DNA of 41,943 bases, from assembly GCA_964548055.1 (NCBI GenBank), contig CAZJPS010000002.1, forward strand, positions 1-41,943. Direction: 5' to 3'. The notes beneath the pieces are model-generated. The model was not told where the DNA came from. It saw nothing but the letters and a program-made list of their open reading frames with translations, and ran no database searches. Of the stretch, positions 5,805 to 40,262 are shown piece by piece (positions within the stretch are counted from its first letter, which is position 1; the number at the start of each line of letters is the position of its first letter). This DNA is from an uncultured Candidatus Peribacteria bacterium. GTDB taxonomy: Bacteria > Patescibacteriota > Gracilibacteria > Peribacterales > Peribacteraceae. Made by a program: the position numbers and the translations under genes.

Positions 5805-5832
5805 GGGAATAACGGCCGGAAGAGGGGATATC

Positions 5833-6678: not shown

Positions 6679-6720
6679 TATCTCGTGAAAAAGGTAGATT
6701 TATACTATATTTCATATTAA

Positions 6721-8744: not shown

Positions 8745-8749
8745 GAGAT

Positions 8750-9214: not shown

Positions 9215-9216
9215 TT

Positions 9217-9630
9217 TCACATCCACAACACAATCACGAGCGACATCGCCACCATGATCACGAGATGGTAGACGATATTGAAGAGGTACAAGGGTATCGA
9301 TCGTTTCTCCCACAGCACGCCATTCAAAAGAACGGCTGCAACAATGACCCACGACCAAAAGCCCAATTGCAGGGCGTCCATCATAGTAGAGGCATGGATG
9401 ATTGCGGCAAAGAGCGCGAATACGTAGGCAATGACAGCCTGCTGTATGAAGGCACTAACAATGCGAGGAAGCATGTTTTCTTGCTGTGCTTTCTGTTGTT
9501 CTGCCTCAGAAATATTCATGAGTGCCAGCCATTGTTTTCCAAATACTGGGCCATGCCACAGAAAACCAATAACAAAAGAAAGAATGGCAGCAACGAGGAC
9601 TGCTACAAAATTCACATCGAAATACATCAT
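9217..9630 (-). CDS. DUF1761 family membrane protein
   Basis: The N-terminus MMYFDVNFVAVLVAAILSFVIGFLWHGPVFGKQW matches DUF1761. The ORF is 137 aa with four hydrophobic segments. Confidence 0.7.
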   Translation of the reverse strand: MMYFDVNFVAVLVAAILSFVIGFLWHGPVFGKQWLALMNISEAEQQKAQQENMLPRIVSAFIQQAVIAYVFALFAAIIHASTMMDALQLGFWSWVIVAAVLLNGVLWEKRSIPLYLFNIVYHLVIMVAMSLVIVLWM

Positions 9631-9733
9631 ACAAACAGGGGAAGAGTGCGGAAAACGCTATCCCTTTTGGAGGATAGGGTCAATGTCTAAATACTTGTTT
9701 GGAGTACAAGCGATGTGAAGGTAACATTTTTCT

Positions 9734-10315
9734 ATGCAAACAACTCGCATGGAAGCCTTTAGCGATGGCGTGATTGCCATTCTTATTACGATCATGGTTT
9801 TGGAGCTCAAAGTACCGGAAGGCACAGATTTTGAGGCAATTCGTCCTCTTATGATGTCGTTCCTTACCTACGTGCTTAGTTTTATCTACTTGGGCATTTA
9901 TTGGAATAATCATCACCACTTGTTGCACGCTACCGACCATGTAGACGGAAGAATTTTGTGGGCGAATTTGCATCTGCTTTTCTGGCTTTCACTCATCACA
10001 TTCGCTACCGGTTGGATGGCCGAAAATCATCTGGCTCCAGTGGCAACTGCCGTATACGGTGCTGTGCTTTTGATGTGCGCTCTGGCCTATACGATTTTGC
10101 AGATTGCGATCATTAAACACGGTGGGCCAAATGCGCGGTTACGTGAGGCGATTGGAAAAGATATCAAAGGGAAAGTATCACTGGTGCTGTATGTTCTCTC
10201 TGTCCCCCTCGCATTTGCGAATCCATGGATATCGGTGGGTATATTTGTATTTGTGGCGTGTATGTGGCTTATTCCGGATCGCAGAATAGAATTGAGCCTT
10301 GAGCATACGCATTAG
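9734..10315 (+). CDS. TMEM175-family (DUF1211) potassium channel
   Basis: It carries the RMEAFSDGVIAILITIMVLEL signature (RxxxFSD on TM1) and has six predicted TM segments. Confidence 0.8.
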   Translation: MQTTRMEAFSDGVIAILITIMVLELKVPEGTDFEAIRPLMMSFLTYVLSFIYLGIYWNNHHHLLHATDHVDGRILWANLHLLFWLSLITFATGWMAENHLAPVATAVYGAVLLMCALAYTILQIAIIKHGGPNARLREAIGKDIKGKVSLVLYVLSVPLAFANPWISVGIFVFVACMWLIPDRRIELSLEHTH

Positions 10316-10477
10316 TACAAAGCACCTGATATCAGAATAGGGAAGGCAAATAACTGGTTATTTACCTACTCCTTCTTAAGCTGTGGAAGCGCTTTCCGTT
10401 TTCCAAAGCGAAAGCGGTGCATGCGCATTGCTCTTTGGCATAACGGTTTTCAGTTCAAAATCTTGCAGGAGTGTACG

Positions 10478-11290
10478 ATGAAGAATTTTTTCGAGAAGAA
10501 CATGATCAAGATCGCGTTCGTGAGCCTGCACCTGTGTGTGCTGGCTGTCTTTTTCGTTCAGCCGACTTGGACGTCAGCGTGCCTTTGCATAGGGTTTTAC
10601 TTCCTACGCATGTTTGGGATCACCGCGGGCTATCATCGCGGTCTTTCCCATCGATCCTACGAGTCAGGAAGATTCGTAAGGTTCATAATGGCGTGGCTGG
10701 GATGCAGCGCCATGCAGAAAGGACCCTTGTGGTGGGCCGCAAAGCATCGCGACCATCACAAGTACTCCGACACAGGCAATGATCCCCATTCGCCGGTCGC
10801 TCATGGGGTCTGGTGGTCTCACATTGGGTGGGTGCTTTCTTCGTATGAGGAGAAAAAAGCACCCTCCACGGTGAGGGATCTTGCGAAGGCGTGGGAGCTG
10901 CGCTTTCTTGATCGGTACCACTGGGTACCGGGGCTTAGTCTCGCAATTCTCTGTTTCACCTTGGATGGCTGGAGCGGAATTGTGTGGGGATTCGTGGTGA
11001 GCACCGTGCTGCTCTACCACGGGACGTTCCTCGTGAACTCCGTTTGCCATATTTTTGGCAGACAGCGGTTTAAGACAGGGGACCAGAGCAGGAACAACGC
11101 TCTGGTTGCAATCCTGTTCACGATGGGGGAAGGGTGGCATAACAACCACCATCACCGTCCTGCTCTAGCGCGGCAGGGAGTTACATGGTGGGAGCTGGAT
11201 TTTAGCTTCTACATCTTGTGGCTCCTTGCTCAGTGTCGGCTTGTGTGGAATCTGCACAAGCCACCGCCGCGTGGGCGGCTGGAAACCTAG
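10478..11290 (+). CDS. acyl-CoA/acyl-lipid delta-9-type fatty acid desaturase
   Basis: Three His boxes are present: HRGLSHRSY, HRDHHKYSD and GEGWHNNHHH. I prefer the start at ATG 10478 (MKNFFEK); the track ORF begins at 10421. Confidence 0.85.
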   Translation: MKNFFEKNMIKIAFVSLHLCVLAVFFVQPTWTSACLCIGFYFLRMFGITAGYHRGLSHRSYESGRFVRFIMAWLGCSAMQKGPLWWAAKHRDHHKYSDTGNDPHSPVAHGVWWSHIGWVLSSYEEKKAPSTVRDLAKAWELRFLDRYHWVPGLSLAILCFTLDGWSGIVWGFVVSTVLLYHGTFLVNSVCHIFGRQRFKTGDQSRNNALVAILFTMGEGWHNNHHHRPALARQGVTWWELDFSFYILWLLAQCRLVWNLHKPPPRGRLET

Positions 11291-21407: not shown

Positions 21408-22493
21408 TTAGTGAAGGGGTGATTGGTAACACTTTTCATCGCCCCATGCGGCTTCATTCGGCGTTCTGTAGCTGAGGGCCATATGCGGGCGATCATCGTT
21501 GTAATCGACCATCCACTGGATAAGAGCACCATTCAACATTTCCATATCGGTGCAATCCTTCCATGGTGGAAGGAATTCCTCTCGCAGCGTGCGATTGAAT
21601 CGTTCTAGCTGAGAATTGTCCTTCGGTGTCCTGACGCGACTCCAGTAGTGACCGAGCTTCAGCTCCAACACGGCCTTCTGAAAATGCCGGTGGAACTCAG
21701 TGCCATTGTCCGTCTGCACGTTCCGCATGGTTCCTCGCATATTTCGATTCAAAAGGTGTAGGAATTCGGCCGCGTTTTTCGAGCTGTGGGTTTTGTAGAC
21801 ACGCGCAAAGCCCCAGCGAGAATGCCGGTCGAGTGCCGTGAACATCGAAAACGTTGCTTTTCCCTGCCTGAGTATCACCGTATCGATGCTGACGAGAAAA
21901 CCAGTCTTTGGCTCCTTGATGAGTTTCGTGATGCGTTGCTTCTTCTCCGCGTACTGACGTTTGTACGCTAGCCGCCGGGCACGTTTCACATCCGGATAGA
22001 GCTGGTAGCGTTCAATGATCTTCTGTACCTGCCAGGAAGAAATCTTCGTACCATACTGTCTTTCATAGATGGCAGCAATCTTCATCTTCGAGTAGAGCGG
22101 ATATGCTGATCGCAAGAAGAAAAGACGTTGGCTTTGTTCCGGATCAAGCACAGGGAGTGGACCGACTTTTGGACGATGGGAACCGTTTTCCAGCGATTGA
22201 GGCTTCGTCACATCGAACCGTTTCTTCCAGACGTAAAATGTCTTCCGCGAAATGCCGAAATAGCGGCACGTCTTTTTGGTATTCCCCTTGAACGTTGTGT
22301 TGTAGGCGACGAACCAATCCAGACGCTGCCGTGCTTCTCGCGTGAGTGGAACTCTCAGCGATCCTGCCAGGAGAATCGTCCATATCTGTTTTGCTTTTTC
22401 GGGATTCCGTCGCGCATTTCCCCACAGGGCTTGCTGCAGTTGCATACGCTCAGCGTCGGTGAGATTCTTCGGAGAATGTTCTTGGACTGTCAT
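21408..22493 (-). CDS. IS481-family (rve integrase-core) transposase
   Basis: I prefer the start at ATG 22493 (MTVQEHSPK). The N-terminal HTH is TCRYFGISRKTFYVWKKRF. The DDE core is SIDTVIL, VQTDNGTEF and NSQLERFNRTLREEF, and it ends DYNDDRPHMALSYRTPNEA. Confidence 0.85.
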   Translation of the reverse strand: MTVQEHSPKNLTDAERMQLQQALWGNARRNPEKAKQIWTILLAGSLRVPLTREARQRLDWFVAYNTTFKGNTKKTCRYFGISRKTFYVWKKRFDVTKPQSLENGSHRPKVGPLPVLDPEQSQRLFFLRSAYPLYSKMKIAAIYERQYGTKISSWQVQKIIERYQLYPDVKRARRLAYKRQYAEKKQRITKLIKEPKTGFLVSIDTVILRQGKATFSMFTALDRHSRWGFARVYKTHSSKNAAEFLHLLNRNMRGTMRNVQTDNGTEFHRHFQKAVLELKLGHYWSRVRTPKDNSQLERFNRTLREEFLPPWKDCTDMEMLNGALIQWMVDYNDDRPHMALSYRTPNEAAWGDEKCYQSPLH

Positions 22494-22510
22494 GGGAGGC
22501 GATACAAATT

Positions 22511-22750
22511 CTAATCCTGTTCCAGCATCTTCCGAAGAAGGATTGCCAGTGCCTCGACCGCATCGCTCGGAACGTCGGCTTCCGCTAGGGCTCCCATGCC
22601 GGGCACGCGTGCTTGAAAAACTCCCGTCCCTTCGGTTGAGAAATCCACTGGCATTACCATGTAGCACTTTCCTGCATAAGCGTCGAAGAGCGGCATAGGA
22701 ACACCATCTTCCTGTAAGATTTGCCGCTGCTCATCGGTGACGAAGATCAC
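22511..22750 (-). CDS. small hypothetical protein (weak HicB/UPF0150-like resemblance); possibly the 3' part of a TAG-interrupted gene
   Basis: The 79-aa ORF starts with GTG. The segment GVFQARVPGMGALAEADVPSDAVEALAILLRKMLEQ is HicB-like. It is in frame with ORF 22760-22963 across a single TAG at 22760-22762. Confidence 0.3.
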   Translation of the reverse strand: MIFVTDEQRQILQEDGVPMPLFDAYAGKCYMVMPVDFSTEGTGVFQARVPGMGALAEADVPSDAVEALAILLRKMLEQD

Positions 22751-22925
22751 CGGCGCAGTCTACACCGTGCCCGTGTGTGGAATAATTTTCTGATAGACAA
22801 TGTGATCGATCCACGCAAAAACCACGCGGCGCTCCGAACCGTTTACTGCGCCATCTGCGCTCGGTATAATGAGAGGGCAACCCGACAGCCCGGGAGGCGT
22901 GTTTTCCCTAGGGAGTCCTGAAACC

Positions 22926-24707
22926 ATGGCCGAGGCTGGGCAGTTCCACCCCAAGGTCTTCATCAGCTACAGCCACAGGGATGAACGGTGGAAGGACCGC
23001 CTCCTCATCCACATGAGGGTATTGCAGCGAGAGGCTGCGTTCGACATCTGGGATGACCGCCGTTTACGGGCTGGAGACCACTGGTACGAAGAAATCCAGT
23101 CTGCGTTGCGGACCGCAAACCTGGCGATCCTTCTCATCTCGGCCAACTCTCTGACGTCCGATTTCATCCTCCGAGAGGAAGTCCGTTCCTTGCTCCAGCG
23201 GCACGAGCGGGAGGGCCTGCGCATCATTCCGATCGTCCTTGAGCCCTGTGCTTGGCAGAAAGTTGGTTGGCTGAGTAAGATGCAACTCCTCCCCAAGGAT
23301 GGCCGACCTCTCTCGCAGGCCCGCCGCCGCCACGAGATCGAGGCGGAGCTGACTGCAATTGCAACCCTCGTCTTCGATCTCCTGCGCGAGGCTACGTTCG
23401 CATCGGTCCAGCCCTCGCGCCCAGCCCCCATGCCCTCTACCGATACCAGTCCGTCACCGGCAGCCGCCTACAATGACCTCCTTGCGCTGGCCGCGACACA
23501 GCAGCAGTGTGGGCAGTACAGCGGCGCCCAACGAGCGTTCGAAAAGGCCATCAGCATCCTGGGACAGCTCGTCGAACGATCGCCTGCGGTGTCCGCCTAC
23601 CGTTCAAGTTTGGCGGTGGCCTGCAACAACTTTGGCAATCTCCTTCGACGCCTCGGCCGTTTGTCCGATGCGAAGGACTACTACCACAGAGCCTTGGACT
23701 TGGAGGAGCGCCTCCACGAGGAAGAGCCCGATAGTCCTGACTACCTCAATGACACGGCGCGCACCCACCACAACTTGGGCACGGCCCTGTGGGATGAGAA
23801 ACACCTCGGCCCAGCAGCCGCTGCCTTTCGCAGATCCGTGGAGATCCGTGCGTGGTTGGTTGCCAACACGGCAGGCCATCCACGTCACTGCCTTTTCCGC
23901 CGAGAGCTGGGAGATAGTTACACTTTTCTCGGCAAGATACTGTGGCAAATGAACAATGTCTGTGATGCGGAAGCTGCTTTCCGCCACGCGCTTCACTGGT
24001 TGGAGCCGCTCGTCATGGCACACCCTGCGCCCATCGAAGCTCGCATGGAGCTGGGATTGGCCTACGCGGGCTTGGCGAGACTGCTCGCCGAATGCCAGGC
24101 AGACCGGCGACAGGAAGCGGAAGCTCTGTATGCAAAAGCTCTGACCTGCCAGCACGGCCTTGTTGATGAGTTGCCTACCGTCCCCGATCACCGACATCAC
24201 CTTGCGTTCACGTTGGGCGGCCTTGCCCGTTTGTTACAGAAGCAGGAGCAACGGGCGCAAGCCCTGGACTACATTCGACAAGCCATCGACCATGGCTTGC
24301 AAGTGTTGGAATCCGTGAGCCCACAGCCGCGGCAGTGGCACGGGGATTGTACCCGCGACTATCGGTACCTCCTGGCAGTGCTGCTGGAGATGGGCAACTT
24401 TGATGAGGCGGCAACGGCAGCGACGGAAATCCCTTCCGCCCTTCGCACGGATCCGTCGGATTGCATCAGGTGGGCAGCATTTCTCGCTCCTTGTGTCAAA
24501 GAATGGGTGAAGCCAGGTACGCTCAACCTGGAACGCAACACGCGCTGCTTCGAGAACCTCGCAATGGAACAACTGCGTGAGGCTGTCGATAAGGGGCATG
24601 GTGATCCGGAACAACTGTTAACAGACAAACGTTTTGAGGCGATGCGGTCCCGCGCAGACTTCCATGAATTGATTACCAGATTGCGCAACAATTCGGCCCA
24701 GGAATGA
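22926..24707 (+). CDS. TIR domain protein with a long C-terminal TPR array
   Basis: I prefer the start at ATG 22926 (MAEAGQFHPKVFISYSHRDERWKD). The TIR_2-like pattern is FISYSH...DIWDD...G..W..EI..AL..A.LAILLISANSLTSDFILREEV...IIPIVLEPC. Two candidate catalytic Glu residues lie at 23175-23180. Multiple TPR-like helical pairs follow a Pro/Ser linker. There is no P-loop. Confidence 0.8.
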   Translation: MAEAGQFHPKVFISYSHRDERWKDRLLIHMRVLQREAAFDIWDDRRLRAGDHWYEEIQSALRTANLAILLISANSLTSDFILREEVRSLLQRHEREGLRIIPIVLEPCAWQKVGWLSKMQLLPKDGRPLSQARRRHEIEAELTAIATLVFDLLREATFASVQPSRPAPMPSTDTSPSPAAAYNDLLALAATQQQCGQYSGAQRAFEKAISILGQLVERSPAVSAYRSSLAVACNNFGNLLRRLGRLSDAKDYYHRALDLEERLHEEEPDSPDYLNDTARTHHNLGTALWDEKHLGPAAAAFRRSVEIRAWLVANTAGHPRHCLFRRELGDSYTFLGKILWQMNNVCDAEAAFRHALHWLEPLVMAHPAPIEARMELGLAYAGLARLLAECQADRRQEAEALYAKALTCQHGLVDELPTVPDHRHHLAFTLGGLARLLQKQEQRAQALDYIRQAIDHGLQVLESVSPQPRQWHGDCTRDYRYLLAVLLEMGNFDEAATAATEIPSALRTDPSDCIRWAAFLAPCVKEWVKPGTLNLERNTRCFENLAMEQLREAVDKGHGDPEQLLTDKRFEAMRSRADFHELITRLRNNSAQE

Positions 24708-25436: not shown

Positions 25437-25579
25437 CTCTGCAATAAGGAAAGGGATTGAAAGGAATGGGAAGTCCTTCTCACGGCAGCTTTTTGATCGT
25501 TATCCCTTCAATCCCTTTATTCCCTTGAATCCTTTTGCCCCTTACCAATCCTTATATTTGCGCTTATACTCCAGTAAAG

Positions 25580-26488
25580 ATGATTGAGTTCCAGCGTCTC
25601 ATTCTCGGTGATCAAGTGCGCAACAAGGTTTTTGAAGATGCCTTAAAGAGGGTCATCCGGCCTGGCGAAAGTATTGTGGCCGATATAGGTTCGGGCACTG
25701 GATATCTTTCTTTCCTAGCCTCCAAGATGGGAGCCAAGGAATGCCACCTGTATGAGTTTTCTGAACTCCTTCCGCTCAGTAAAGAGATCGCAAAAAAGAA
25801 TGGGATCAAGAACCTGCACTTTCATCATGCACATTCCATGAGCGTGAAGAACCCTGTGAAAGCAGATATTGTGATATCCGAAACACTTGGAAATTATGCG
25901 CTAGAAGAGAATATGTTGGAGACACTGAGCGACGCTAAGCGGTATCTAAAAGAAGGTGGCGTGATGATCCCCCAGACTCTTACTCAATATGTAGTTCCCG
26001 TGACAAGTGATCGCCTCCATAAGGAAATCAATGTGTGGGACACGCTCGGACACGGTCTTGATTTTTCCCCTGCCAAGGAAATCTGTTTCCATAACATGTA
26101 TGTGAAAACTCTCCGTCCCGATGAGCTTTTGCAAAATGGAATTCAGGAATGGGACAGTATTGATTTCCGCAAAGGCGGTTCGAGCATTCGTCAGGCTGAT
26201 GTTGTTTGGTCTATGCAGAATCCACAGAAAATCTATGGATTTGTGCTCTTCTGGCATTGCGAATTGCTACCAGGGATCACTCTCTCTACTACTCCACTTC
26301 ACCCACCCACACACTGGCAGCAGATCTATTTACCACTCATAGAGCCGCTATCCCTGCAATCAAACGACACTCTCAAGCTCCATCTGCATTCCGATTCTAG
26401 GTTGAAAGTGAAAATAAGGCTGAAATGGAAAGCGGAGGGAGGAGGGGAGAGTTCAATAGAGATGGATACGCACAAGGGACTCGTGTAA
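25580..26488 (+). CDS. protein arginine N-methyltransferase (PRMT)-like SAM methyltransferase
   Basis: Motif I is VADIGSGTGYL and post-I is HLYEFS. ADIVISETLGNYALEENML matches the double-E loop, and LKEGGVMIPQ is motif III. PPTHWQQIYLPL matches the THW loop in a C-terminal beta-barrel-sized domain. I prefer the start at ATG 25580. Confidence 0.7.
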   Translation: MIEFQRLILGDQVRNKVFEDALKRVIRPGESIVADIGSGTGYLSFLASKMGAKECHLYEFSELLPLSKEIAKKNGIKNLHFHHAHSMSVKNPVKADIVISETLGNYALEENMLETLSDAKRYLKEGGVMIPQTLTQYVVPVTSDRLHKEINVWDTLGHGLDFSPAKEICFHNMYVKTLRPDELLQNGIQEWDSIDFRKGGSSIRQADVVWSMQNPQKIYGFVLFWHCELLPGITLSTTPLHPPTHWQQIYLPLIEPLSLQSNDTLKLHLHSDSRLKVKIRLKWKAEGGGESSIEMDTHKGLV

Positions 26489-30604: not shown

Positions 30605-31843
30605 TCAAGGCAGGTCTGGTGGAGGAGATGCTTCAGCCTTTGCTTTTGCTTCAGCCTCCTTTTTTGCTTTTTCCTCCTCCTCCGCGGGAGCTGGTACTTG
30701 CTGCGGCGTACCTGCCGGTGCATTGGTCCATTGGCTTATCACATTCAAGCGGACATTGAATTCATCAAGATGAGTTTGTGTAACACCGGGCATCGTATTC
30801 AGTCTGTTCATCGCTTCAGGCTGTTGCTGAGCAGGCAAACTAGATGGATGGATGCGAACCGAGAGTGACTGAGACAGATTTTGGCTCGTCTGCCCGGTTA
30901 CTCCCAAAAGGTATTGCTGCCAATCAGCCATGCTGACTACTCCATCAACAGGTTGATTGAATCCTGCTATGAATCTTCCGCGCAGTCGAATGGCCGTTGA
31001 TCCATTTTCCTGAATAGTTCGAATGCTTTCAAATGCGCTCTGTGCCGATGTACCAGTGGTCGGTAATAGGAACTGGAAGTTTTTTTGTTGATGGGAAAGC
31101 ACAATTGTTTGTCCCTGCCTGAGAAAGGAGATCACGCGCGCATCGGCTCCCTCTCCAATGGTCAGAGGGTGATTCAGTACGTCTATACCGGCGGGCAGTC
31201 TGCCAAGTGCGTACGATCCATCAGGAAGATGTGGCACTGCTTGCAGCAATTTCCTTTGATATTCAATTTCAGCGGCAGATCTACGTGTATTGTTTCCAAG
31301 CACGCCCGATATCCATGCAGCGGCCGCGGTAAGCCCTAGCATCGCCATCAATTTTTTCCCAAAGCTAGCACCTTTCATTTTGGCCCACACAAAAAGCCCC
31401 ACGAGTGAAGCACCACCTATAGCGAGCCACCCATGTCGCTGTGCAAATGTACCCATATCACTCAGCCCTACGATTGCCGTATTCCTTGCATCACGCATGG
31501 CGTTGAAGGCCTGTCCTGGAAGCTCTGCTGCTCCTGGCTGAGGAAGGTTATTCCGTACCTCTTGTAAGTGTTTAAGAGCTTCTTGGCTCTCGGGATCTGT
31601 TCTATTGCCAAATACACTAATATAATGTTCAACCCAATTACGTAAATCAGCAACGCGTCGCAATGCAATAACACGAGCAGCATGGTTTGTCAGATTCAGT
31701 GTTGAGCTCACTTCTTTTCGTAATTGCTCTAAGTTAATCCTTGTCACATCTCCAGGCGTCAGATTATTCTGCGTGAGCGAGTTGATTGTGGGCGTTGGAT
31801 GCGATGGCAGAATTTCGTTGGTGTAGCTACCGAGTGTCGACAT
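30605..31843 (-). CDS. hypothetical protein, helical N-domain + 2 TM + beta-rich C-domain + EAK-rich tail
   Basis: The 412-aa ORF has TM segments GWLAIGGASLVGLFVWAKM and LMAMLGLTAAAAWISGVLG. The tail reads EEEEKAKKEAEAKAKAEASPPPDLP. It is the last gene of a three-gene minus-strand operon. Confidence 0.6.
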   Translation of the reverse strand: MSTLGSYTNEILPSHPTPTINSLTQNNLTPGDVTRINLEQLRKEVSSTLNLTNHAARVIALRRVADLRNWVEHYISVFGNRTDPESQEALKHLQEVRNNLPQPGAAELPGQAFNAMRDARNTAIVGLSDMGTFAQRHGWLAIGGASLVGLFVWAKMKGASFGKKLMAMLGLTAAAAWISGVLGNNTRRSAAEIEYQRKLLQAVPHLPDGSYALGRLPAGIDVLNHPLTIGEGADARVISFLRQGQTIVLSHQQKNFQFLLPTTGTSAQSAFESIRTIQENGSTAIRLRGRFIAGFNQPVDGVVSMADWQQYLLGVTGQTSQNLSQSLSVRIHPSSLPAQQQPEAMNRLNTMPGVTQTHLDEFNVRLNVISQWTNAPAGTPQQVPAPAEEEEKAKKEAEAKAKAEASPPPDLP

Positions 31844-31858
31844 ACAAAAATGGGAAAA

Positions 31859-32725
31859 TTACGCAGTAGGAGAAGGAGCTTGGTATTGTCCCGGGAAAGG
31901 GGGCATCGGTTGCAAACCAAGTATTACTGCCTGTTGTGGATTCGCTCGTAGAAAAGTATTCAAAAGTCTGGCTTCTGCCATCAGTTCCGCAAAGGTGGTA
32001 ATCACTCTTCCCTCTGCCTGAGCCCTCTGTGCTGCTACTTCCAAAAAGTGCGCCTGATCGCGATTACCAATCAGAGTGACGAGTGCACCCATTTGAACAG
32101 AAGGCACTGTTTCCACATCAGCAATCTGAATACCAGCAGCAACCATGCTCTCGCGAATGCGATCTAAGCGTGGAGCGCTTGAAGCAGTATTGTTCATTGC
32201 TTGATTCCAGATATCCGAGAGCCGTGTGCGGCCACTCAGTAATCCTGGAATATTCACAACAACGGCACTCACGCTTGTGCCAAGTCCTCCCAGTTTTTCC
32301 TTCGCATATCCAAAAAATTCACCAATCCTTCTTCCAATTGTTCCTAGGAACTGAAATGCGCTTGGGAATTGAGTACGCAGCCGCTCTTCTTGCACGTGGA
32401 ACCACGTATTTCCTTGTGTTCGAGGGGCGTATACCTGCGTAGGAGGGGCCATGAGCTTCCGCTGTGCTTCAATTTGTTTTCTGAGGCCCTCCAGCCTGAT
32501 GTGATGATCCGTTCCCTGCTCGTTACGCTCTTGTAAGCGTGCTATCCGAAAGGCGACAAGCTTCCCCAATTCTTCCAGTCTCTTACCAATTGTTTCGCGC
32601 GGAGCCGTACTAAGATCACGGAGTTGCTTTTCAATAGTATCAACTGAAATGTTCTCCAAATGATTTGGGATCTGAGAAAGAGAATCTGCAAGCGTGCCGA
32701 GAGTTTCGGGTGTATTGAACGGCAT
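31859..32725 (-). CDS. hypothetical protein (operon member 2)
   Basis: The 288-aa ORF has no signal peptide, TM segment or motif that I recognise. It lies 15 nt upstream of the next gene. Confidence 0.6.
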   Translation of the reverse strand: MPFNTPETLGTLADSLSQIPNHLENISVDTIEKQLRDLSTAPRETIGKRLEELGKLVAFRIARLQERNEQGTDHHIRLEGLRKQIEAQRKLMAPPTQVYAPRTQGNTWFHVQEERLRTQFPSAFQFLGTIGRRIGEFFGYAKEKLGGLGTSVSAVVVNIPGLLSGRTRLSDIWNQAMNNTASSAPRLDRIRESMVAAGIQIADVETVPSVQMGALVTLIGNRDQAHFLEVAAQRAQAEGRVITTFAELMAEARLLNTFLRANPQQAVILGLQPMPPFPGQYQAPSPTA

Positions 32726-32729
32726 ACAG

Positions 32730-33878
32730 TTACTGGCTTAACTGAGCTTGAGTAGGATTATTGGCTTCAAAAACCATTTTTGTTGCATTTGGATTTGCAC
32801 GAATAAGTTCCACAATGCGCCCAAGAGTGCGGCCTGCTCCTTCACCCTGGAAGCGAAGTTCAATACCCGCTGCTGCTGTACTATTTGTGGGTGCTGAAAG
32901 TGTGGCATTCGGTGCGCGTGCTCCCGGAGTAGTGCGCAACTCAATATCGCGGTTATCTACCCTGAAGAGGAATGCATTACTATCAAGCGCACGATAGAGC
33001 GTTACAGAAGCACCATTCACATTACTTACCCTGCGCTCTGATTGAGCATCCACCACAAGTGGGACGTTCCCAAAATTGAGTCCTCCAATTACACGTTGAT
33101 TTGCCAATGTTTCTGGATTGCCTAGTGTTCCTACTGGAGCAGTATCGCGCACTGTATTCGTTTCTTTATCTACCAAATTCTGTGCAGCGGCACTCACGTT
33201 GAGTGCTGTATATGTCGTCCTGCTTCCCACAATACTTGTCACTTCATTTGTTAAAGCTGAAGCAAATTCTCCTCCTGTCATGAGTGCTACTGCAGCGCGT
33301 GGAGGCTGTGCTTGTCTGCCACGGTTATTAGCTTGATTGCGGATCGTGTTAATTTTGAGCACAGCTGCTTCCACATCACGGCCTGCGGTTGTGCGGGAAA
33401 GCTCTTCCATTGCTTGATTTTGCGTAAGACGTTCATCAGCTGTACCTGTTGCTATCACCATGTATTTTCCAGAACTCTCTAAGCCTCCCACCATGTCACG
33501 CAAGATAGGCTGTGCTCTGAGTGAGAGCGTAAGAAGAAAGCGATTAAGGAGTGGGCTTCCTTTAAAGAAATCAGCAATCTCTCCTAACTGCGCTGCTCCA
33601 AGGCTACTTGTGATACTTCGAATAACATCTCCCAATGTCCGTGCAACATTGTTCACAGCATCCAGCACGTTATTCACGCGTTCGCGGGTCTGTGGATTCA
33701 AGCGATCTAATTGCCGTTGCATCTCTGGCGTTATCTGCACAGGCCCATTCTGTCTCACTCCGTTCAGCGCTTGCTGATCCAATTTTTGTTTTGTTTGCAT
33801 TTCGGTTTTCAACCGTGCTTCTTCGGCAGGATTGGAAGCTGGTCCAGTGGGCGCGTAGTCGATTGTTTCACCGCTCAT
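32730..33878 (-). CDS. hypothetical protein (operon member 1)
   Basis: The 382-aa ORF is rich in Q, N and T and has no recognised motif. A 4-nt gap separates it from the next gene. Confidence 0.6.
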   Translation of the reverse strand: MSGETIDYAPTGPASNPAEEARLKTEMQTKQKLDQQALNGVRQNGPVQITPEMQRQLDRLNPQTRERVNNVLDAVNNVARTLGDVIRSITSSLGAAQLGEIADFFKGSPLLNRFLLTLSLRAQPILRDMVGGLESSGKYMVIATGTADERLTQNQAMEELSRTTAGRDVEAAVLKINTIRNQANNRGRQAQPPRAAVALMTGGEFASALTNEVTSIVGSRTTYTALNVSAAAQNLVDKETNTVRDTAPVGTLGNPETLANQRVIGGLNFGNVPLVVDAQSERRVSNVNGASVTLYRALDSNAFLFRVDNRDIELRTTPGARAPNATLSAPTNSTAAAGIELRFQGEGAGRTLGRIVELIRANPNATKMVFEANNPTQAQLSQ

Positions 33879-34106
33879 ATATGTGTGTTGGTATGAATGA
33901 AATTCATCCCATTATAGCCGAAAAACGGAATTCTAACAATAGGGGCAGATTTCGTGGTTTCTTGTCGAAATTGAGATGTGATGTATCAATAAAACTTACT
34001 ATGTATATCTGTCAAATACACAATCTTTCTCTCTGTCACACATCCCTTTTTCGCTCGTCGTATAGCAAGAAGGTGTATGCTTCTTTTACTTCATTCCCAC
34101 CCCTCT

Positions 34107-34463
34107 ATGAATGTTCAGCACTTCGAGAAAGGGATTGCCTATACGGATCAGGATTTGATTGTTCTGGCGCGGAAAATTGGAAAATTGGCCACCTTTTGCA
34201 AGCACGTGAAGAACGAAGCGTCGCTCATTCGAGTTGAGTCCGAGCAGCGCAAAACCAAAAAGGCGCAAGATCAGGTGAAAGTGATGCTCACTGTGGATCT
34301 TCCAAAAAAACAATTCAGAGCAGAATCTCGACGGCCGATTGTGATGGATGCCCTAGATCGTTGCATAGAAAAGCTGACGCCCCAAATTCAGAAGTATAAG
34401 GAGCTCCACACAGGTCGAGGGAAAGCACGCCTTGGCGCTCGCCGTTCCCGGACGGAAGCATGA
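34107..34463 (+). CDS. hpf: ribosome hibernation/translation inhibition factor, short RaiA/HPF form
   Basis: MNVQHFEKGIAYTDQDLIVLARKIGKL...VKVMLTVDLPKKQFRAESRRPIVMDALDRCIEKLTPQIQKYKE fits the S30AE fold pattern. Its TGA overlaps the next ATG in an ATGA at 34460-34463. Confidence 0.75.
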   Translation: MNVQHFEKGIAYTDQDLIVLARKIGKLATFCKHVKNEASLIRVESEQRKTKKAQDQVKVMLTVDLPKKQFRAESRRPIVMDALDRCIEKLTPQIQKYKELHTGRGKARLGARRSRTEA

Positions 34464-36049
34464 GAAGAACAGGCGATGCCCGCAGGCTCTTAAGCATGAT
34501 GAAAAGAGGAAACTGCAGTGTGCGAAGAATCTTTTCTTGTATAGGAACAGCCGCGTTTGTCGGTATTCTCTGGCTCCTTCCAGTTCATGCGCAGGAGCAA
34601 CTTCACAGCCAAAGTGCTGGCGTGACAGCAGTGATTGTAGGACCAGCCGATACCCCTGTTGGACGCACCATTATTTTAAGTGCTTCTGCCAGCCAAGTTG
34701 CAGGAAATAATGTGCAATATTTTTGGTACGTGAATTCAGAAAAAGAACCCATCAGCACATCGGTAGATGTGATCTATACACCGGAAAGAGCAGGGGACGT
34801 GGAATTCCATCTTGTGATTCGAAGCCTTTTAAATGGCCAACGATTGGAAGATGACGAATATCACACGGTCACTGCGTTTAGCAGAAAAGTGGTATTGATT
34901 ACCGATACGCATTTATCGGATGCACACATACAAAATCTGCAAAATGCAGCTGCATCTGGTTCTACGTATTTGCGCGTACTTCGTTCCCATATTTCTTCGC
35001 AAACCCGCGGAGGGGAAACCGCACTGGGAGCCCTCCTTTCCGAAGAAGTGGAAGCGTTTAGTGATGCAGAAAGCATAGTGTTCTGGACAGACGATCTTCC
35101 TCCGGTCGGATTACAGGCGTTACTGAATATTGTGAAAGGAAATCGAAAACGTTTGCTTGATGTGCGTGATCAGACATTCTTACTCATTACAGATCTTCAT
35201 CTGCGGACGGTGGCACGCACTGCTATCGGCCCCGGAAATGAGTTGCATCCAAAAAAATTGATGGTGGCCAAATCCGAGCTCATACCGATGCTCTTGCAAT
35301 CAAAGAATGACGAAGAATTTTTGAATGCAGCATTTCAAGCTCGTGCGGAGGAGCCGCTCATTATGGATGTATTCGCTGTCCACATTCCGCTTTGGCAGCT
35401 TGTGTCTCGGCTCCTTATAACCATGCTCGCGCTTGGTGTTTCCAGCCAAACCATCCTGCTTCTGCTCGTTCTTCCTATTATTGCCACCATTCTTTCATTT
35501 TTGAAACAGGTGGTTGGTATGACCACTTTTGGGCTTTTTACACCTTCTATTATCGCGCTTAGCTTTTTAGTTCTTGGGTGGCCAGTGGGCGTTCTCTTCT
35601 TGCTTTTCATTCTCATGACGGGGTACGCAACTCGCGCTCTCATGCGAAGGCTGCATATTCTGTATATACCAAAGATGGCCATCATCCTTGGTGTAGGAAG
35701 CCTGACCATATTGTTTCTCGTAGGTATTGGCACCTTCTTTGGAGTATTTCTTAGCTACGATACGGTCTTTGTACTTCTGATTATGAGCACGCTCGTAGAA
35801 AGCTTCTTAAATGTGAAATCAGAAGAAGGCCTGCGCTCTGCAGTATTTGGTATAAGCCAAACAATTATTGCCGCGCTTTTATGCGTGTTTATCGTGCAGT
35901 GGCCTTCATTCCGCGCTCTCATTATCGCCTATCCAGAAATTATTCTTTTCACTCCTATCATCAATATTTTGCTGGGGAGATGGACGGGATTGCGCGTGTC
36001 AGAATATTTCCGCTTCAGGGAAGTGTTCCGCCATCTTGCGCAGGAATAA
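34460..36049 (+). CDS. signal peptide + Ig/PKD-like + alpha/beta ectodomain + C-terminal 7TM module (7TM_transglut-like)
   Basis: The 529-aa ORF may instead start at 34496 or 34499 (MMKRGNCSVRRIFSCIGTAAFVGILWLLPVHAQ). The C-terminal half is polytopic and contains LKQVVGMTTFGLFTPSIIALSFLVLGW. That segment resembles the 7TM partner of RimK-like ATP-grasp enzymes. Confidence 0.6.
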   Translation: MRRTGDARRLLSMMKRGNCSVRRIFSCIGTAAFVGILWLLPVHAQEQLHSQSAGVTAVIVGPADTPVGRTIILSASASQVAGNNVQYFWYVNSEKEPISTSVDVIYTPERAGDVEFHLVIRSLLNGQRLEDDEYHTVTAFSRKVVLITDTHLSDAHIQNLQNAAASGSTYLRVLRSHISSQTRGGETALGALLSEEVEAFSDAESIVFWTDDLPPVGLQALLNIVKGNRKRLLDVRDQTFLLITDLHLRTVARTAIGPGNELHPKKLMVAKSELIPMLLQSKNDEEFLNAAFQARAEEPLIMDVFAVHIPLWQLVSRLLITMLALGVSSQTILLLLVLPIIATILSFLKQVVGMTTFGLFTPSIIALSFLVLGWPVGVLFLLFILMTGYATRALMRRLHILYIPKMAIILGVGSLTILFLVGIGTFFGVFLSYDTVFVLLIMSTLVESFLNVKSEEGLRSAVFGISQTIIAALLCVFIVQWPSFRALIIAYPEIILFTPIINILLGRWTGLRVSEYFRFREVFRHLAQE

Positions 36050-36141
36050 ATTGATCTTTTTCATACTATGATTTCTGATTTTGATTTACAGTAAAAAGAC
36101 CAGATCTGGAGTAGTTTTTCAATTTCTTCGCTTCTCTTCGC

Positions 36142-38535
36142 TTGGTTTTCCCTTTTTTCCGCCACGGAATTCTTGGCCTCAATGCTCGTAATTTGTTGTA
36201 TTTGAGGCCATATAACCCCAAAAAGGCTGTCGCATTTGCAGATAACAAACTGAAAACAAAAGCATACTTATCTGCGCGTGGAATCCCCACTGCAAAGATA
36301 TATGCAAGAATAGAAACGCGTGGGCAATTGCGAAGCTTTGATTTTTCTACTCTTCCAGAAGAATGTGTACTCAAGCCTAATTATGGATTTGGAGGAGAGG
36401 GAATTCTTATTTTAAAGGGGCGAAAAAATGGGATGTTTTTGGAGCAGGGGAAAGTACCCATTCCAGACAGTAGATTACGCGAACACATCGAAGATATTTT
36501 AGACGGAAAATTTTCGGTGAATGGAAAGATGGACACGGCATTCTTTGAAAAAATTCTTGTGTCACATGAGGGGTTTGCGCCCTTTAGACCTGCAGGACTT
36601 CCTGATGTACGCATTGTGGTATTCAACCTTGTTCCCGTAATGGCAATGCTCCGTGTTCCCACAGCGCAAAGCAGGGGAAAGGCGAATGTGCATATGGGAG
36701 GATTAGGCATTGGAATCGATATTGCAAAGGGGGTTACTACGCATGCATTCCAATACTCTTCGCTTCTTACAGAGCTTCCCCATCATGGAGGAAATCCCGC
36801 AGGCATTCCCATTCCTTTTTGGCAGGAAATGCTGCTCATTTCCTCACGTATTCAGTACATGACAAATATCGGGTACCTAGCAGTAGATTTAACGTTGGAT
36901 AGGGACCAGGGACCGGTACTTTTGGAGGTGAATGCACGTGCGGGCCTTATGGTGCAGGTAGCCAATTTAGCTCCGCTCCGCTCGCGTTTGGAGCGTGTAG
37001 AGGGACTGAGTGTTAGTTCTCCAGAAAAAGGTGTGCGTATTGCACAAGATTTGTTTGGAGAAAAAGTGGAAAAATCTGCAGAAGTACAAACGAATAGACC
37101 ACGCTTAGGCGTGCGAGAAAATATATTTGTACATTCAAAAGGGATGAATATGGAAGTGCCAAGCATCATTAATCCTGCGGCATCGGAATACACTATTTTT
37201 ACGCCCGATTTACTTCAGGAATTGCAGGCGCAAGGAGGCGCAGAGCTTTCCGAAGAGTCGGAAGATATTGATCGTCAATTCTACCGAGTTAAATTTACAT
37301 TGGGTGGTAAAAAAATTCAGACGCATGTGTATGCTGGGAGCGTACCCTACCCCTCTGCTCGTGCACTTATCGGGCGCAGAGACCTCGCAGGTTTTTATAT
37401 AGATCCAGCAAAAGAACCCGAAGTACCCATTACTATTACTCGGATGCGTATCGATACACGCGCAACCGATAGAATTCTTTTGCAGATGGATGAAGAATTG
37501 ATGCTACTCAAGCATCTGAAGCCCATCAATCTTCCCGGAGAGCGCATTCAGTTAGAACGCGATCGCAATTATAGCCCTCATTTTTTGTATGCCCCTCTTC
37601 CCGAAGCTATTGATGATATTGAGCGCAAGCTCCGTACCTTACCCACAGACGATTCGTCATTAGGGATTCTTCTAAATAAAAAGCGCAGAGAACTTTTGAT
37701 GCGTATTGCTCTTTTCCGCGCACGTGGGAACAGTGAGCGGTTTACACAGGCATCACAAGCCCTCTTTGGTGCGCCCCATGCAGATTTACTAGCATCGGCG
37801 TTCCATGTTCTTGCTTCTCGTACCAGCTGCGATCTTCCTCTGCCAAAAAATCAAATGCTTACATCGGATCAGGCAGCAGCGCGCTTTGATGAAATGCTTT
37901 CCCAGTATGGGCTTCACGATTGGCAGGTGAGTGTACGCGAAGCATTGGTGTCGGATTGTGCGGTTGGGTGGAAGCGCCTCTATGTTCGCAAAGGAGCAAT
38001 ATTTTCTCCTACACATGTGGAATCACTCATGGCGCACGAAATAGAAACGCATATTCTCACAGCCGAGAATGGAGCGCAGCAGCCGTTTGATATTTTCCGC
38101 CGCGGTTTTGCAAATTATTTAGATACGCAAGAAGGATTGGCATCGTATAATCAGAATAGAGTACTTCCAAAAAACCACGATAAACGGTTTGGTCCAGCAC
38201 GCAGTGTTGTAGCAATTGCCTATGCCCTTGAACATTCTTTTGTGGATACACGTAAATATCTGGAAGCAGAGTTAGGATACACATCTGAGAAATCACTCAC
38301 CAAAGCAATTGAACTCAAGCGCGGCCTTTTTGATACTTCAGAGCCTGGCTGTTTTACAAAAGGACTGGTGTATTATCGCGGGCTTAGAGCAATCGAGCAC
38401 TTTGAAGAGAGCGGAGGAGATTTGAAGCGTTTGTACATAGGCAAAATTGCACTAGAGGATTTAGACTGTGCAGAGCAGGTAGAAGGAGTAAAACCACCAC
38501 TGCTTATTCCAGCATTTCTTAGAAAAAAGAAGTAA
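36142..38535 (+). CDS. fusion protein of alpha-L-glutamate-ligase-like ATP-grasp + degenerate retropepsin-like domain + DUF1704/QEGLA HExxxH metallopeptidase-like domain
   Basis: The start is TTG at 36142. The N-terminus VFPFFRHGILGLNARNLLYLRPYNPKKAVAFADNKLKTKAYL...VLKPNYGFGGEGILIL matches the ATP-grasp family I recall as TIGR02291. The middle region LGVRENIFVHS..IINPAASEY...ALIGRRDLAGFYIDP is retropepsin/Zn_protease-like. The C-terminal region carries HEIETH (38035-38052) and QEGLA (38128-38142). Confidence 0.75.
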   Translation: MVFPFFRHGILGLNARNLLYLRPYNPKKAVAFADNKLKTKAYLSARGIPTAKIYARIETRGQLRSFDFSTLPEECVLKPNYGFGGEGILILKGRKNGMFLEQGKVPIPDSRLREHIEDILDGKFSVNGKMDTAFFEKILVSHEGFAPFRPAGLPDVRIVVFNLVPVMAMLRVPTAQSRGKANVHMGGLGIGIDIAKGVTTHAFQYSSLLTELPHHGGNPAGIPIPFWQEMLLISSRIQYMTNIGYLAVDLTLDRDQGPVLLEVNARAGLMVQVANLAPLRSRLERVEGLSVSSPEKGVRIAQDLFGEKVEKSAEVQTNRPRLGVRENIFVHSKGMNMEVPSIINPAASEYTIFTPDLLQELQAQGGAELSEESEDIDRQFYRVKFTLGGKKIQTHVYAGSVPYPSARALIGRRDLAGFYIDPAKEPEVPITITRMRIDTRATDRILLQMDEELMLLKHLKPINLPGERIQLERDRNYSPHFLYAPLPEAIDDIERKLRTLPTDDSSLGILLNKKRRELLMRIALFRARGNSERFTQASQALFGAPHADLLASAFHVLASRTSCDLPLPKNQMLTSDQAAARFDEMLSQYGLHDWQVSVREALVSDCAVGWKRLYVRKGAIFSPTHVESLMAHEIETHILTAENGAQQPFDIFRRGFANYLDTQEGLASYNQNRVLPKNHDKRFGPARSVVAIAYALEHSFVDTRKYLEAELGYTSEKSLTKAIELKRGLFDTSEPGCFTKGLVYYRGLRAIEHFEESGGDLKRLYIGKIALEDLDCAEQVEGVKPPLLIPAFLRKKK

Positions 38536-38544
38536 TTGAGTATT

Positions 38545-38642
38545 GAGAGTAATAGAATACTGGGAATGAGAATAATAGGTTCCTCATTCAACACATGAAA
38601 AACAAACATCCTATTATTCTAATATTCTTGTCCCTATTACTC
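38545..38642. repeat. locus-specific long imperfect palindrome between convergent genes
   Basis: GAATAATAGG (38570-38579) pairs with CCTATTATTC (38610-38619). GAGTAATAG (38547-38555) pairs with CTATTACTC (38634-38642). The loop is 30 nt. Confidence 0.7.
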
Positions 38643-39334
38643 TACTTCTTCTTAGCGGCGTCTTCCTTTGCGCCTTTTTCAGCAGCTTCCTTCGTAGCGC
38701 CTTCAGCCGCAGCACCTTCTGCTGTAGCACCTTCTGCTGTAGCACCTTCAGCTGGAGTAACAGGAGCGGCAACCACTTCTTCAGCACGTGGCTCCTGAAC
38801 AGATGCCAGCACCATATCAGCAGCGTCCATCACTTTTACGCCCGTAGGAAGGGTAAGGTTTTGTACGCTCACATGATCGTGGAAATTTGCCATACCTGAA
38901 ATATCAACGCTCAAGCTATGAGGAAGATCGGATGGTAAGCAACGAACGCGTACGGTGTTGTGGGCAATCACAAACACCCCTCCTAGGCTCTTTACAGCAG
39001 GGGACTCGCCTTCAAAAGTGATTGGCACAAGTGTCTCAATTTCCTGCTTCATATTCACTGCGTAAAAGTCTGCATGCACCTCACGATCGGAAATAGGATC
39101 AAAGGCAATATCTTTAAAGAGAACAGGAACCTTCTTTCCATCAATATCTAGCTCGACAAGTGTGCTTTCTCCAGCCCTGGAGAAAGTTTTATGGAGCTCC
39201 TTCTCGTTGCACTGAATGTGCATGTTTTTCTCTATAGCGCCATACACCACGCAAGGTACCTGGTTATTCCTACGCATCTGCTTAGGCTTTGCCTTTTGGT
39301 CCCGTGCCGATGCTTTCAGAGTAATCATGTCCAT
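38642..39334 (-). CDS. rplY: 50S ribosomal protein bL25 (Ctc form) with a repetitive Ala/Glu/Gly/Thr tail
   Basis: It begins ITLKASARDQKAKPKQMRRNNQVPCVVYG. The C-terminal tail is PAEGATAEGATAEGAAAEGATKEAAEKGAKEDAAKKK. Confidence 0.85.
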   Translation of the reverse strand: MDMITLKASARDQKAKPKQMRRNNQVPCVVYGAIEKNMHIQCNEKELHKTFSRAGESTLVELDIDGKKVPVLFKDIAFDPISDREVHADFYAVNMKQEIETLVPITFEGESPAVKSLGGVFVIAHNTVRVRCLPSDLPHSLSVDISGMANFHDHVSVQNLTLPTGVKVMDAADMVLASVQEPRAEEVVAAPVTPAEGATAEGATAEGAAAEGATKEAAEKGAKEDAAKKK

Positions 39335-39452
39335 AGAGAGGCTGTAGGGTAAGGGAAATGTGGCAAGAGGTCAACATGTGAAGTGCAGCGGCGGTCGCTA
39401 TCAAGGTTCGTTTGGCGATAAGTGGTAAGCGGCTAGCGGTTAGCTCTATATA

Positions 39453-40262
39453 TCACTTATCGCTAACTGCTCGCCCCTTCCATTTCCAGAAATACTTTAA
39501 AGCGCTCAAAAGGTGAATACGAGCCGTTTTCTTGGTAATTAGGCTTAAAAAGCCTCCATCGCTCAGTCGTTGCTTACGGTCCAGTGCATGCACTTCTGGG
39601 CAGTACACCACACGCTTTCCATGTTTCCAGCATTGCCTGCATAGGTCGGTATCTTCAAAAAAGAGGAAAAAGCGGGGGTCAAAACCCCCTAATTCTTTAT
39701 AAAAGCTGCGTCTGATTACAAAACATGCCCCTACCACCCAATCTACATCTTGCATTTGCCCTTTCTTGCTATAGGAACGCAAATACCGGTGCATACGTTT
39801 TCGGAAGATTCGGCGGAGAAATGTTCGCTTAATAAAGACATCAATGGGGGTAGGGAATGCCCTGTGAGAATCCCGAATGCTGCCATCAGGGTGAACCAAT
39901 GCAGGTGCTACAATCCCTATTGAAGAATCGGACTCTATAATACGAATCATATTCTCAAGCCCACTCGGTTCTAGAATATTATCAGGATTGATGATGAGTA
40001 AGAATTCACCCAATGCTTGCGCAATTGCTACTTCATTTCCTTTCCCGTATCCACGATTGCTCCCTGTTTCTAGTAAGCGCATGGAAGCAAAATTGCGGGA
40101 GCGGCTCCGCAGATACCCAATGGAATCGTCTTCAGAGTGATTATCCACCACTAATATTTCCATCTGATCTGCCATTGTTTGCGCTTGCAGCGCTTGTACG
40201 CACCGAGCTGTATCTTTTGGTGACTTATAATTCAGGACAATGGCAGAGGCCAGGGGAGTCAT
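39453..40262 (-). CDS. family 2 glycosyltransferase (rhamnosyltransferase-like)
   Basis: It contains SAIVLNYKSPKDTARCVQALQAQT..EILVVDNHSEDDS, LIINPDN and FFEDTDLC. Confidence 0.8.
   Translation of the reverse strand: MTPLASAIVLNYKSPKDTARCVQALQAQTMADQMEILVVDNHSEDDSIGYLRSRSRNFASMRLLETGSNRGYGKGNEVAIAQALGEFLLIINPDNILEPSGLENMIRIIESDSSIGIVAPALVHPDGSIRDSHRAFPTPIDVFIKRTFLRRIFRKRMHRYLRSYSKKGQMQDVDWVVGACFVIRRSFYKELGGFDPRFFLFFEDTDLCRQCWKHGKRVVYCPEVHALDRKQRLSDGGFLSLITKKTARIHLLSALKYFWKWKGRAVSDK

Follow-up and report, generated by a model that had tools for sequence, protein, structure and literature searches.

Cassettes that combine a membrane protein with seven transmembrane helices (7TM), an ATP-grasp ligase and a retropepsin-like peptidase were reportedly first predicted by Iyer et al. 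in 2009. A variant of such cassettes is analysed here in an uncultured Candidatus Peribacteria bacterium of the Candidate Phyla Radiation (CPR), in which a gene for a 7TM protein precedes a gene for a large ATP-grasp fusion enzyme; the window, to which all positions refer unless another locus is named, is the whole 41,943 nt stretch of contig CAZJPS010000002.1. The proteobacterial version, RloABC, is documented by genetics, RloA structures and a cleavage specificity for Glu-rich sequences (Lormand et al., mBio 2025, PMC12239564). Its RloB component is found for 96% in Proteobacteria, and in Pseudomonas aeruginosa the deletion of rloB or rloC suppresses the loss of the periplasmic RloA proteases, which cleave such Glu-rich sequences (PMC12239564). 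Effects of these cassettes on antibiotic tolerance, biofilm formation and osmotic survival are known in Pseudomonas. In a second system, the ligase RimK extends the gene-encoded -EE end of ribosomal protein S6, a tail that is both extended and trimmed, and its partner RimB binds RimK, raises its ATPase activity fourfold and is required for poly-Glu synthesis; active RimB–RimK hybrids also exist, with a domain order opposite to that of the fusion described here (PMC11957791). Given RloABC and these hybrids, the opinion that neither the substrate nor the biology of the cassette had been established, expressed in an earlier sequence-based note on this locus (hereafter the original prediction), is outdated. 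The eukaryotic MATCAP/TMCP enzymes depend on an acidic -EE-X tail, from which Tyr, Phe, Ala or Glu is cleaved at the C-terminus; polyglutamate chains are also shortened by them (PMC10499314). For the widespread 7TM/ATP-grasp/retropepsin cassettes (RloABC and relatives), the -EE tail of the CPR membrane partner is a concrete candidate substrate that is cheap to test.

The functional core at this locus is a pair of genes (Table 1). The product of the first is a 7TM protein whose family carries a nearly invariant C-terminal tail ending in -E or -EE, and the product of the second joins an RloC-like ligase, a RimB/RloA-like domain that is by sequence and model catalytically dead, and a MATCAP-like carboxypeptidase with an intact HExxxH...QEGLA signature. 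The ends of S6, which RimK modifies, and of detyrosinated tubulin, which MATCAP yields, are likewise -EE. Since a ligase of the glutamate-ligase superfamily, fused to a MATCAP-type peptidase, stands beside an -EE-tailed membrane protein, the simplest reading is that of a writer–eraser pair acting on this tail, and a probability of about 45% is given here to the proposal, drawn from conservation and analogy, that the fusion adds and removes C-terminal residues on the tail of its own 7TM partner.

Homologues of the fusion are numerous (1603), and the best 120 all contain PF14397 together with PF08014; the close homologues of both the fusion and the 7TM protein all come from Candidatus Peribacteria/Peregrinibacteria. 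In the first domain, the Mg/ATP motifs of ATP-grasp enzymes (D249 and E262-x-N264) are invariant in an alignment of 16 homologues. TIGR02291 matches the fusion with an E-value of 4e-70 and 236 bits, under its trusted cutoff of 314 bits, and TIGR02421 likewise matches under its trusted cutoff. The RimK-family model TIGR00768 reaches only 37 bits where its cutoff demands 143, and covers residues 18-95 rather than the full length. Judged by these profiles, the ATP-grasp domain is of the RloC type and not of the RimK type. The third domain scores 151 bits against PF08014 (formerly DUF1704, now named MATCAP), where the gathering cutoff is 27, and human MATCAP (KIAA0895L, PDB 7z5g) is itself matched by sequence with an E-value of 1.8e-10. 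The motif HEIETH (residues 632-637; 38035-38052) aligns with human HEIGTH, and TQEGLA (residues 662-667; 38125-38142), which brings the third zinc ligand, aligns with human TEEGLA; H632, E633, H637 and E664 are invariant in the 16 homologues. Action of this carboxypeptidase on an acidic -EE-X tail is predicted from the -EE tail of the partner protein.

The linker of the fusion, 170 residues long (LGVRE...IINPAAS...IGRRDLAGFYIDP), looks RimB/RloA-like by eye and is silent in sequence searches, both with Pfam at E-values up to 10 and with a profile search of the PDB. Structure is more informative: the AlphaFold2 (AF2) model of residues 287-473 (predicted local distance difference test, pLDDT, of 86) finds as its best Foldseek match RloA of Pseudomonas fluorescens (9g58, E 1e-4), followed by the DUF785/PF05618 protein Lpg0085 (2pma), by RloA2 (9g59) and then by DDI1 and retroviral proteases. 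An Andersenbacteria homologue at locus L085 (932 aa) is collinear with the fusion from the ATP-grasp through the retropepsin domain (E 6e-94), and its retropepsin region is recognized by PF05618 at 43 bits and retains KAKIDTGA. In the Peribacteria protein, I-N344-P-A (37168-37179) stands in place of the catalytic I-D-T/S-G. In a multiple alignment, the position of N344 is occupied by S, A or H in other Peribacteria, while the corresponding sequence is D-S-G in L062 and D-P-E in L074. Thus the cassette does include its retropepsin component, as a degenerate domain inside the fusion; on this sequence and modelling evidence, the domain is catalytically dead.

The membrane partner, with 378 homologues, is matched by PF14402 (7TM_transglut) over residues 320-522 with an E-value of 1.6e-21, as had been anticipated for the gene at 34460-36049. 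Its AF2 model (pLDDT 85) comprises a signal or anchor helix, a beta-sandwich, an alpha/beta domain, seven transmembrane helices and a short C-terminal helix. The beta-sandwich resembles the PKD domains of ColG in Foldseek (2y72 and 4tn9, E 1e-4, TMt 0.74-0.81), and relatives of the protein also give PKD matches in Pfam, so that the secreted Ig-like plus alpha/beta ectodomain fused to a 7TM module, as originally described, holds. The alpha/beta domain sits where RloB carries an inactive transglutaminase; Foldseek gave no convincing structural relative for it, and neither Pfam (PF01841) nor Foldseek detected a transglutaminase. The RloB model NF052267 scores 39 bits against a cutoff of 900 and aligns with the C-terminal (7TM) half only. 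In the absence of a transglutaminase signal, the protein has only its 7TM module in common with RloB. According to the positive-inside rule, its C-terminus would face the cytoplasm.

Across Peribacteria, this C-terminus is nearly invariant over its final 15 residues (EYFRFREVFKHLQEE), and a terminal E occurs in 119 of 120 Peribacteria-type homologues, a terminal EE in 108. To reach further, the 7TM module alone was searched against 1.84 billion cluster representatives, which yielded 1494 matches, 144 of them with an intact C-terminal motif (50% clusters). In these distant representatives, 73/144 end in E and 60/144 in EE, as compared with a background of 5.8% Glu, and the terminal Glu run is kept behind unrelated residues in independent clades (HLQEE, SDHAEE, EETNEE, VKEDEEE, IMEEEEE and KREEEEE). 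In each of the 144, no more than 25 residues follow the 7TM module, which is in no case fused to the neighbouring multi-domain enzyme. A trivial origin of the tail was considered, namely a Shine–Dalgarno sequence of the next gene (CAGGAGGAA), because Q-E-E-stop can spell AGGAGGA, and was rejected: the tail ends in E in 33 of 34 loci where the gap exceeds 60 nt, is EE in 7/7 loci that lack a downstream partner, and is encoded by all four combinations of GAA and GAG, with GAA-GAA the commonest. A tail kept at any gap and through synonymous codons is constrained at the protein level and not as a ribosome-binding site. The tail also tends to go with the nature of the partner. In a second metagenomic set, seeded from a distant EE clade and reduced to unique loci, the EE tail accompanies 27 of 30 partners containing MATCAP and 4 of 10 without it (Fisher p = 0.003, uncorrected for phylogeny). 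A strict rule equating an EE tail with a MATCAP partner was also tried and rejected in favour of a tendency, since L085 and L166 have MATCAP and a non-EE tail and L146, L152, L156 and L163 have EE tails without MATCAP.

The same tail admits another function. The amphipathic helix and its -EE could merely recruit or regulate the enzyme, for instance as a MATCAP pseudo-substrate mimicking the product, the true substrate being, for example, an envelope precursor or a different protein. Such a docking role would account for the conservation, beyond the terminus itself, of the entire juxtamembrane motif GRWTGLRxxEYxRFR, and for the occurrence of EE tails with several partner architectures; moreover, a gene-encoded -EE is the product state of MATCAP-type enzymes. 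For docking, however, the acidic residues need not be the last ones, yet none of the 144 representatives has a C-terminal extension or fusion, and the loci inspected show no conserved neighbour of the pair that could encode another substrate. Docking as the sole role of the tail is considered improbable.

Several points weigh against the tail as substrate. The case is wholly correlative, built from conservation and analogy. The protein of the present locus has a single terminal Glu (...RHLAQE, that is -AQE). In the wider family, RloB-type proteins fused to a transglutaminase do not end in EE, and several stand-alone 7TM proteins of the CPR with ATP-grasp or ATP-grasp plus MATCAP partners end in other residues; the EE tail is thus not universal and cannot serve every PF14402 cassette as a general substrate. 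Conversely, in seven cases a 7TM gene with an EE tail lacks any ATP-grasp gene within 6 kb. Lastly, the suppression of RloA loss in P. aeruginosa by deletion of rloB or rloC points to a product beyond the cytoplasm that depends on RloBC (PMC12239564). This last result favours a different scheme, akin to the Rlo system, in which the ATP-grasp enzyme, activated by the retropepsin domain, makes free poly-alpha-glutamate or a short peptide that the 7TM protein translocates or anchors at the surface; MATCAP would set the chain length or recycle the product in the cytoplasm, and the -EE tail would be at most a primer or docking site. The ATP-grasp partnership in lineages without EE tails, and a GT2 or GT4 gene that is often nearby, fit such synthesis and export as well. 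Yet both peptidase-type domains are here cytosolic and fused to the ligase, with no secreted protease, the 7TM module has no transporter-like signature detectable in Pfam or Foldseek, and export leaves unexplained why the exact C-terminal residues are conserved in several independent clades. Polymer export appears unlikely, although it deserves more weight than a role in docking.

Returning to the writer–eraser proposal, a working cycle can be sketched in which two genes specify a membrane-anchored module for modifying a protein C-terminus, as a CPR variant of the Rim/Rlo ATP-grasp–retropepsin systems. The 7TM protein would expose its PKD and alpha/beta domains outside and offer to the cytoplasm a short amphipathic tail ending in -Glu-Glu-COOH, at which the cytosolic fusion would dock. 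The RimK/RloC-like ATP-grasp domain would then extend -EE at the expense of ATP, most likely with alpha-linked glutamates, and the MATCAP/TMCP-like HExxxH carboxypeptidase would cut the tail back to -EE. The dead RimB-like domain may serve as a scaffold that activates the ligase or holds the tail, as RimB does for RimK. How long the acidic tail is would determine the state of the 7TM protein, be it gating, signalling or partner binding, and the ectodomain might govern this through what it senses. In the Peribacteria lineage the module would be transcribed behind hpf and is thus probably expressed with the hibernation/stress programme.

Of the known systems, three stand closest to this module. 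It shares with RloABC the association of a PF14402 7TM gene with a PF14397/TIGR02291-type cytosolic ATP-grasp and a PF05618-type retropepsin module, the best structural match of the linker being RloA itself. Unlike in RloABC, the ectodomain is of the PKD plus alpha/beta kind, the retropepsin forms part of the cytosolic ligase polypeptide and is devoid of the catalytic Asp (RloA is secreted and active, with a signal peptide and D-T/S-G), a MATCAP-like carboxypeptidase domain follows, the 7TM tails end in -EE and the host phylum is CPR. With RimK–RimB(–RimA), including RimBK, it shares the pairing or fusion of an ATP-grasp ligase with a retropepsin-like domain; there, a substrate with a gene-encoded -EE that is extended and trimmed, and a retropepsin partner that stimulates the ligase, provide the precedent. 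It differs in the branch of the ligase (RloC/TIGR02291 and not TIGR00768), in the ligase-then-retropepsin order, the reverse of RimBK, in the inactivity of the retropepsin, and in the obligate 7TM partner and the MATCAP domain. The third parallel is the eukaryotic TTL/TTLL–MATCAP cycle on tubulin tails, in which the carboxypeptidase is homologous (PF08014, with HExxxH and E-E/Q-G-L-A; 7z5g) and the logic would by analogy be the same, an ATP-grasp ligase and a MATCAP-type peptidase operating on an acidic -EE tail. However, writer and eraser are here joined in a single protein, the ligase falls outside the TTL family, and a membrane protein takes the place of tubulin as presumed substrate.

The fusion architecture is abundant in databases, where it is generically annotated. 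The literature search returned no paper describing this architecture, the dead retropepsin or the -EE tail, an earlier account of the fusion in Iyer et al. 2009 being possible, and searches on DUF1704, on MATCAP in prokaryotes and on RimK with KIAA0895 gave nothing relevant. Being fused to an amino-acid ligase, these bacterial relatives of MATCAP, the human tubulin detyrosinase/deglutamylase, would represent a ready-made writer–eraser enzyme and bear on the origin of the eukaryotic tubulin-tail machinery. The conserved 7TM–fusion pair suggests a testable bacterial protein-tail code. A more far-reaching version is put forward tentatively, with the odds somewhat against it: reversible lengthening of the 7TM -EE end by the fusion would constitute a tail code of bacterial membrane receptors, the MATCAP half of the tubulin tyrosination/glutamylation cycle would have its prokaryotic ancestry in the CPR-wide module, and the tail would be the first substrate for the RloC/TIGR02291 class.

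The original prediction had considered three genes, hpf included, as one unit and had envisaged a ribosome-directed modification. Synteny was established on 80 GTDB Peribacteria species loci, with hpf counted in the 67 having at least 700 nt of upstream DNA. The 7TM gene lies directly 5′ of the fusion gene in every Peribacteria locus with enough upstream DNA, and this pairing is also kept in distant clades. By contrast, hpf precedes the pair in 49 of the 67 loci and belongs to a block with bL25 and GT2 (47 loci with hpf and bL25, 17 with neither); on the fusion-protein tree, the loci without hpf form one clade of ~20 species plus four deep branches, and in them the pair persists between unrelated genes. 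In the metagenome sample, hpf occurs only beside Peribacteria-type loci. Because the pair is retained where the hpf–bL25–GT2 block is lost, the functional core consists of two genes and not three; the adjacency of hpf is an ancestral, lineage-specific synteny of Peribacteria that probably implies co-expression with the module, hpf not being a component of it, and should not count as a functional link in genome annotation. Of the linkage expected among homologues, the 7TM–fusion part is thus conserved and the hpf part is not; likewise, the postulated membrane-coupled tailing cassette of the 7TM/ATP-grasp/retropepsin kind stands by its domains and its pair linkage, with a coupling to hpf that is confined to one lineage.

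The same data bear on the idea that the ligase tails HPF, bL25 or S6 and so connects ribosome hibernation with sensing at the membrane. In 38 of the 49 hpf-bearing loci, a potential start of the 7TM gene is found from -4 to +9 nt relative to the hpf stop, an upper bound on coupling since the measure picks the nearest start; bL25 is convergent downstream, and RimK modifies S6 (PMC11957791). Nevertheless, the whole block disappears jointly while the pair remains, other CPR lineages carry the module after yebC-ruvC, and the ATP-grasp is RloC-type by its profiles. The C-terminal tails of HPF and those of bL25 vary across loci, which makes both proteins poor candidates for a C-terminal ligase, and rpsF (S6) was found neither in the window nor in the retrieved loci with an approximate E. 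coli S6 sequence as query. A ribosomal target is accordingly very improbable, and the tail of the 7TM protein itself is indicated instead.

Table 1. Features of the 7TM–fusion module and its flanking genes in contig CAZJPS010000002.1
Feature	Position	Strand	Remarks
hpf	34107..34463	+	118 aa, short HPF/YfiA-type; alternative ATG at 34077
7TM partner protein	34460..36049	+	529 aa; PF14402; RloB-related in 7TM module only
Signal peptide or anchor helix	34511..34591	+	residues ~18-44 (...LLPVHA/QEQ, slash marking the putative cleavage point); AF2 helix 18-38; AXA-like VHA motif in sequence
Extracellular PKD/Ig-like beta-sandwich	34622..34903	+	residues ~55-148; Foldseek
Extracellular alpha/beta domain	34907..35359	+	residues ~150-300; AF2 beta-alpha-beta pattern, pLDDT >90
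7TM module	35417..36025	+	residues 320-522; PF14402; seven hydrophobic helices in AF2 model
Cytoplasmic (predicted) C-terminal tail EYFRFREVFRHLAQE-COOH	36002..36046	+	proposed substrate or primer of partner enzyme
Tri-domain cytosolic fusion enzyme	36142..38535	+	797 aa, TTG start
RloC/TIGR02291-type ATP-grasp ligase domain	36187..37002	+	residues 16-287; PF14397 E 6.5e-56
Degenerate RimB/RloA-type retropepsin domain	37093..37416	+	residues ~318-425; AF2, Foldseek and collinearity
MATCAP/TMCP-like Zn carboxypeptidase domain	37561..38481	+	residues 474-780; PF08014 E 4.4e-44
bL25/Ctc	38642..39334	-	PF01386 and PF14693; convergent; context only
GT2 glycosyltransferase	39453..40262	-	PF00535; context, same syntenic block as bL25

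The layout of the locus agrees with the original prediction in its main lines: three co-oriented genes, an ATGA overlap of hpf and the 7TM gene (34460-34463) and, 92 nt past the latter, an ATP-grasp fusion gene, as confirmed by open reading frames (ORFs) and PF14397. Of the accessions named in the original prediction, PF14402, PF14397, PF08014, TIGR02291 and TIGR02421 match in hidden Markov model searches. The assignment of HPF is weak, with 28.4 bits for PF02482 (cutoff 23.7) and 28.9 for TIGR00741 (cutoff 40.9). The TTG is the sole canonical in-frame start of the 797-aa fusion. In the 7TM gene, ATGs at 34496 and 34499 are alternative starts that would leave a gap of 32-35 nt to hpf and yield a signal peptide of more typical form; with these starts available, the translational coupling of hpf and the 7TM gene that had been claimed from the overlap is plausible and not certain. 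A divergent gene upstream and the convergent bL25 downstream make hpf, the 7TM gene and the fusion gene one transcriptional block by geometry. A consensus scan for promoters and terminators over 33700-39500 gave no signal above shuffled expectation and is neutral on a common transcript.

Relatives of the module in other lineages show further arrangements. In CPR outside Peribacteria, the 7TM–ATP-grasp module recurs directly after yebC(TACO1)-ruvC (L085 3509-5648; also L115, L117, L123 and L151), a position that is again lineage-specific. Locus L151 encodes ATPgrasp_ST, PF05618 and a second ATP-grasp in one polypeptide (6623-9412), and L085 has two further ATP-grasp genes downstream of the cassette (8815-10648); such extra domains or genes in some CPR cassettes hint at a multi-step peptide assembly. 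The EE-tailed PKD–7TM genes without an ATP-grasp neighbour include those of L116 (5019-7470), L118, L122, L124 and L134, and in L116 the 7TM gene overlaps a class IV (D-amino-acid/branched-chain) aminotransferase gene that lies before it. On the side of HPF, many Peribacteria proteins end in -LAA or -AA (…SRLAA, …RDLAA, …FSLAA and …RTLAA, as in L003 at 6094-6441 and L005 at 6009-6365). These ends, surveyed in the hpf genes of L001-L082 and located at 34440-34463 in the window, resemble an ssrA/ClpXP degron and may be partly forced by the ATGA overlap, which imposes NNA as the last codon.

Elsewhere in the window, three consecutive ORFs (412, 288 and 382 aa) occupy 30605-33878 on the minus strand, divergent from hpf; those of 288 and 382 aa have no significant Pfam match, and tblastn found no counterpart of them in other Peribacteria loci. 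A gene for an rve-type insertion sequence transposase (21408-22667, minus strand) adjoins that of a 612-aa TIR plus TPR protein (22869-24707), and the GC content of this patch (21408-24707) is 0.53-0.60 compared with ~0.46 for the window, so that it is probably an acquired island with a defence-like gene. On the minus strand at 1419-5888, a 1489-aa protein is encoded whose sole match is an SNF2-related domain, and a homologue of TMEM175-type potassium channels is encoded at 9734-10315 on the plus strand. Finally, the plus strand at 25535-26488 encodes a protein arginine methyltransferase (PRMT)-like enzyme with a PRMT_C oligomerisation subdomain, which is eukaryote-style and unusual in bacteria.

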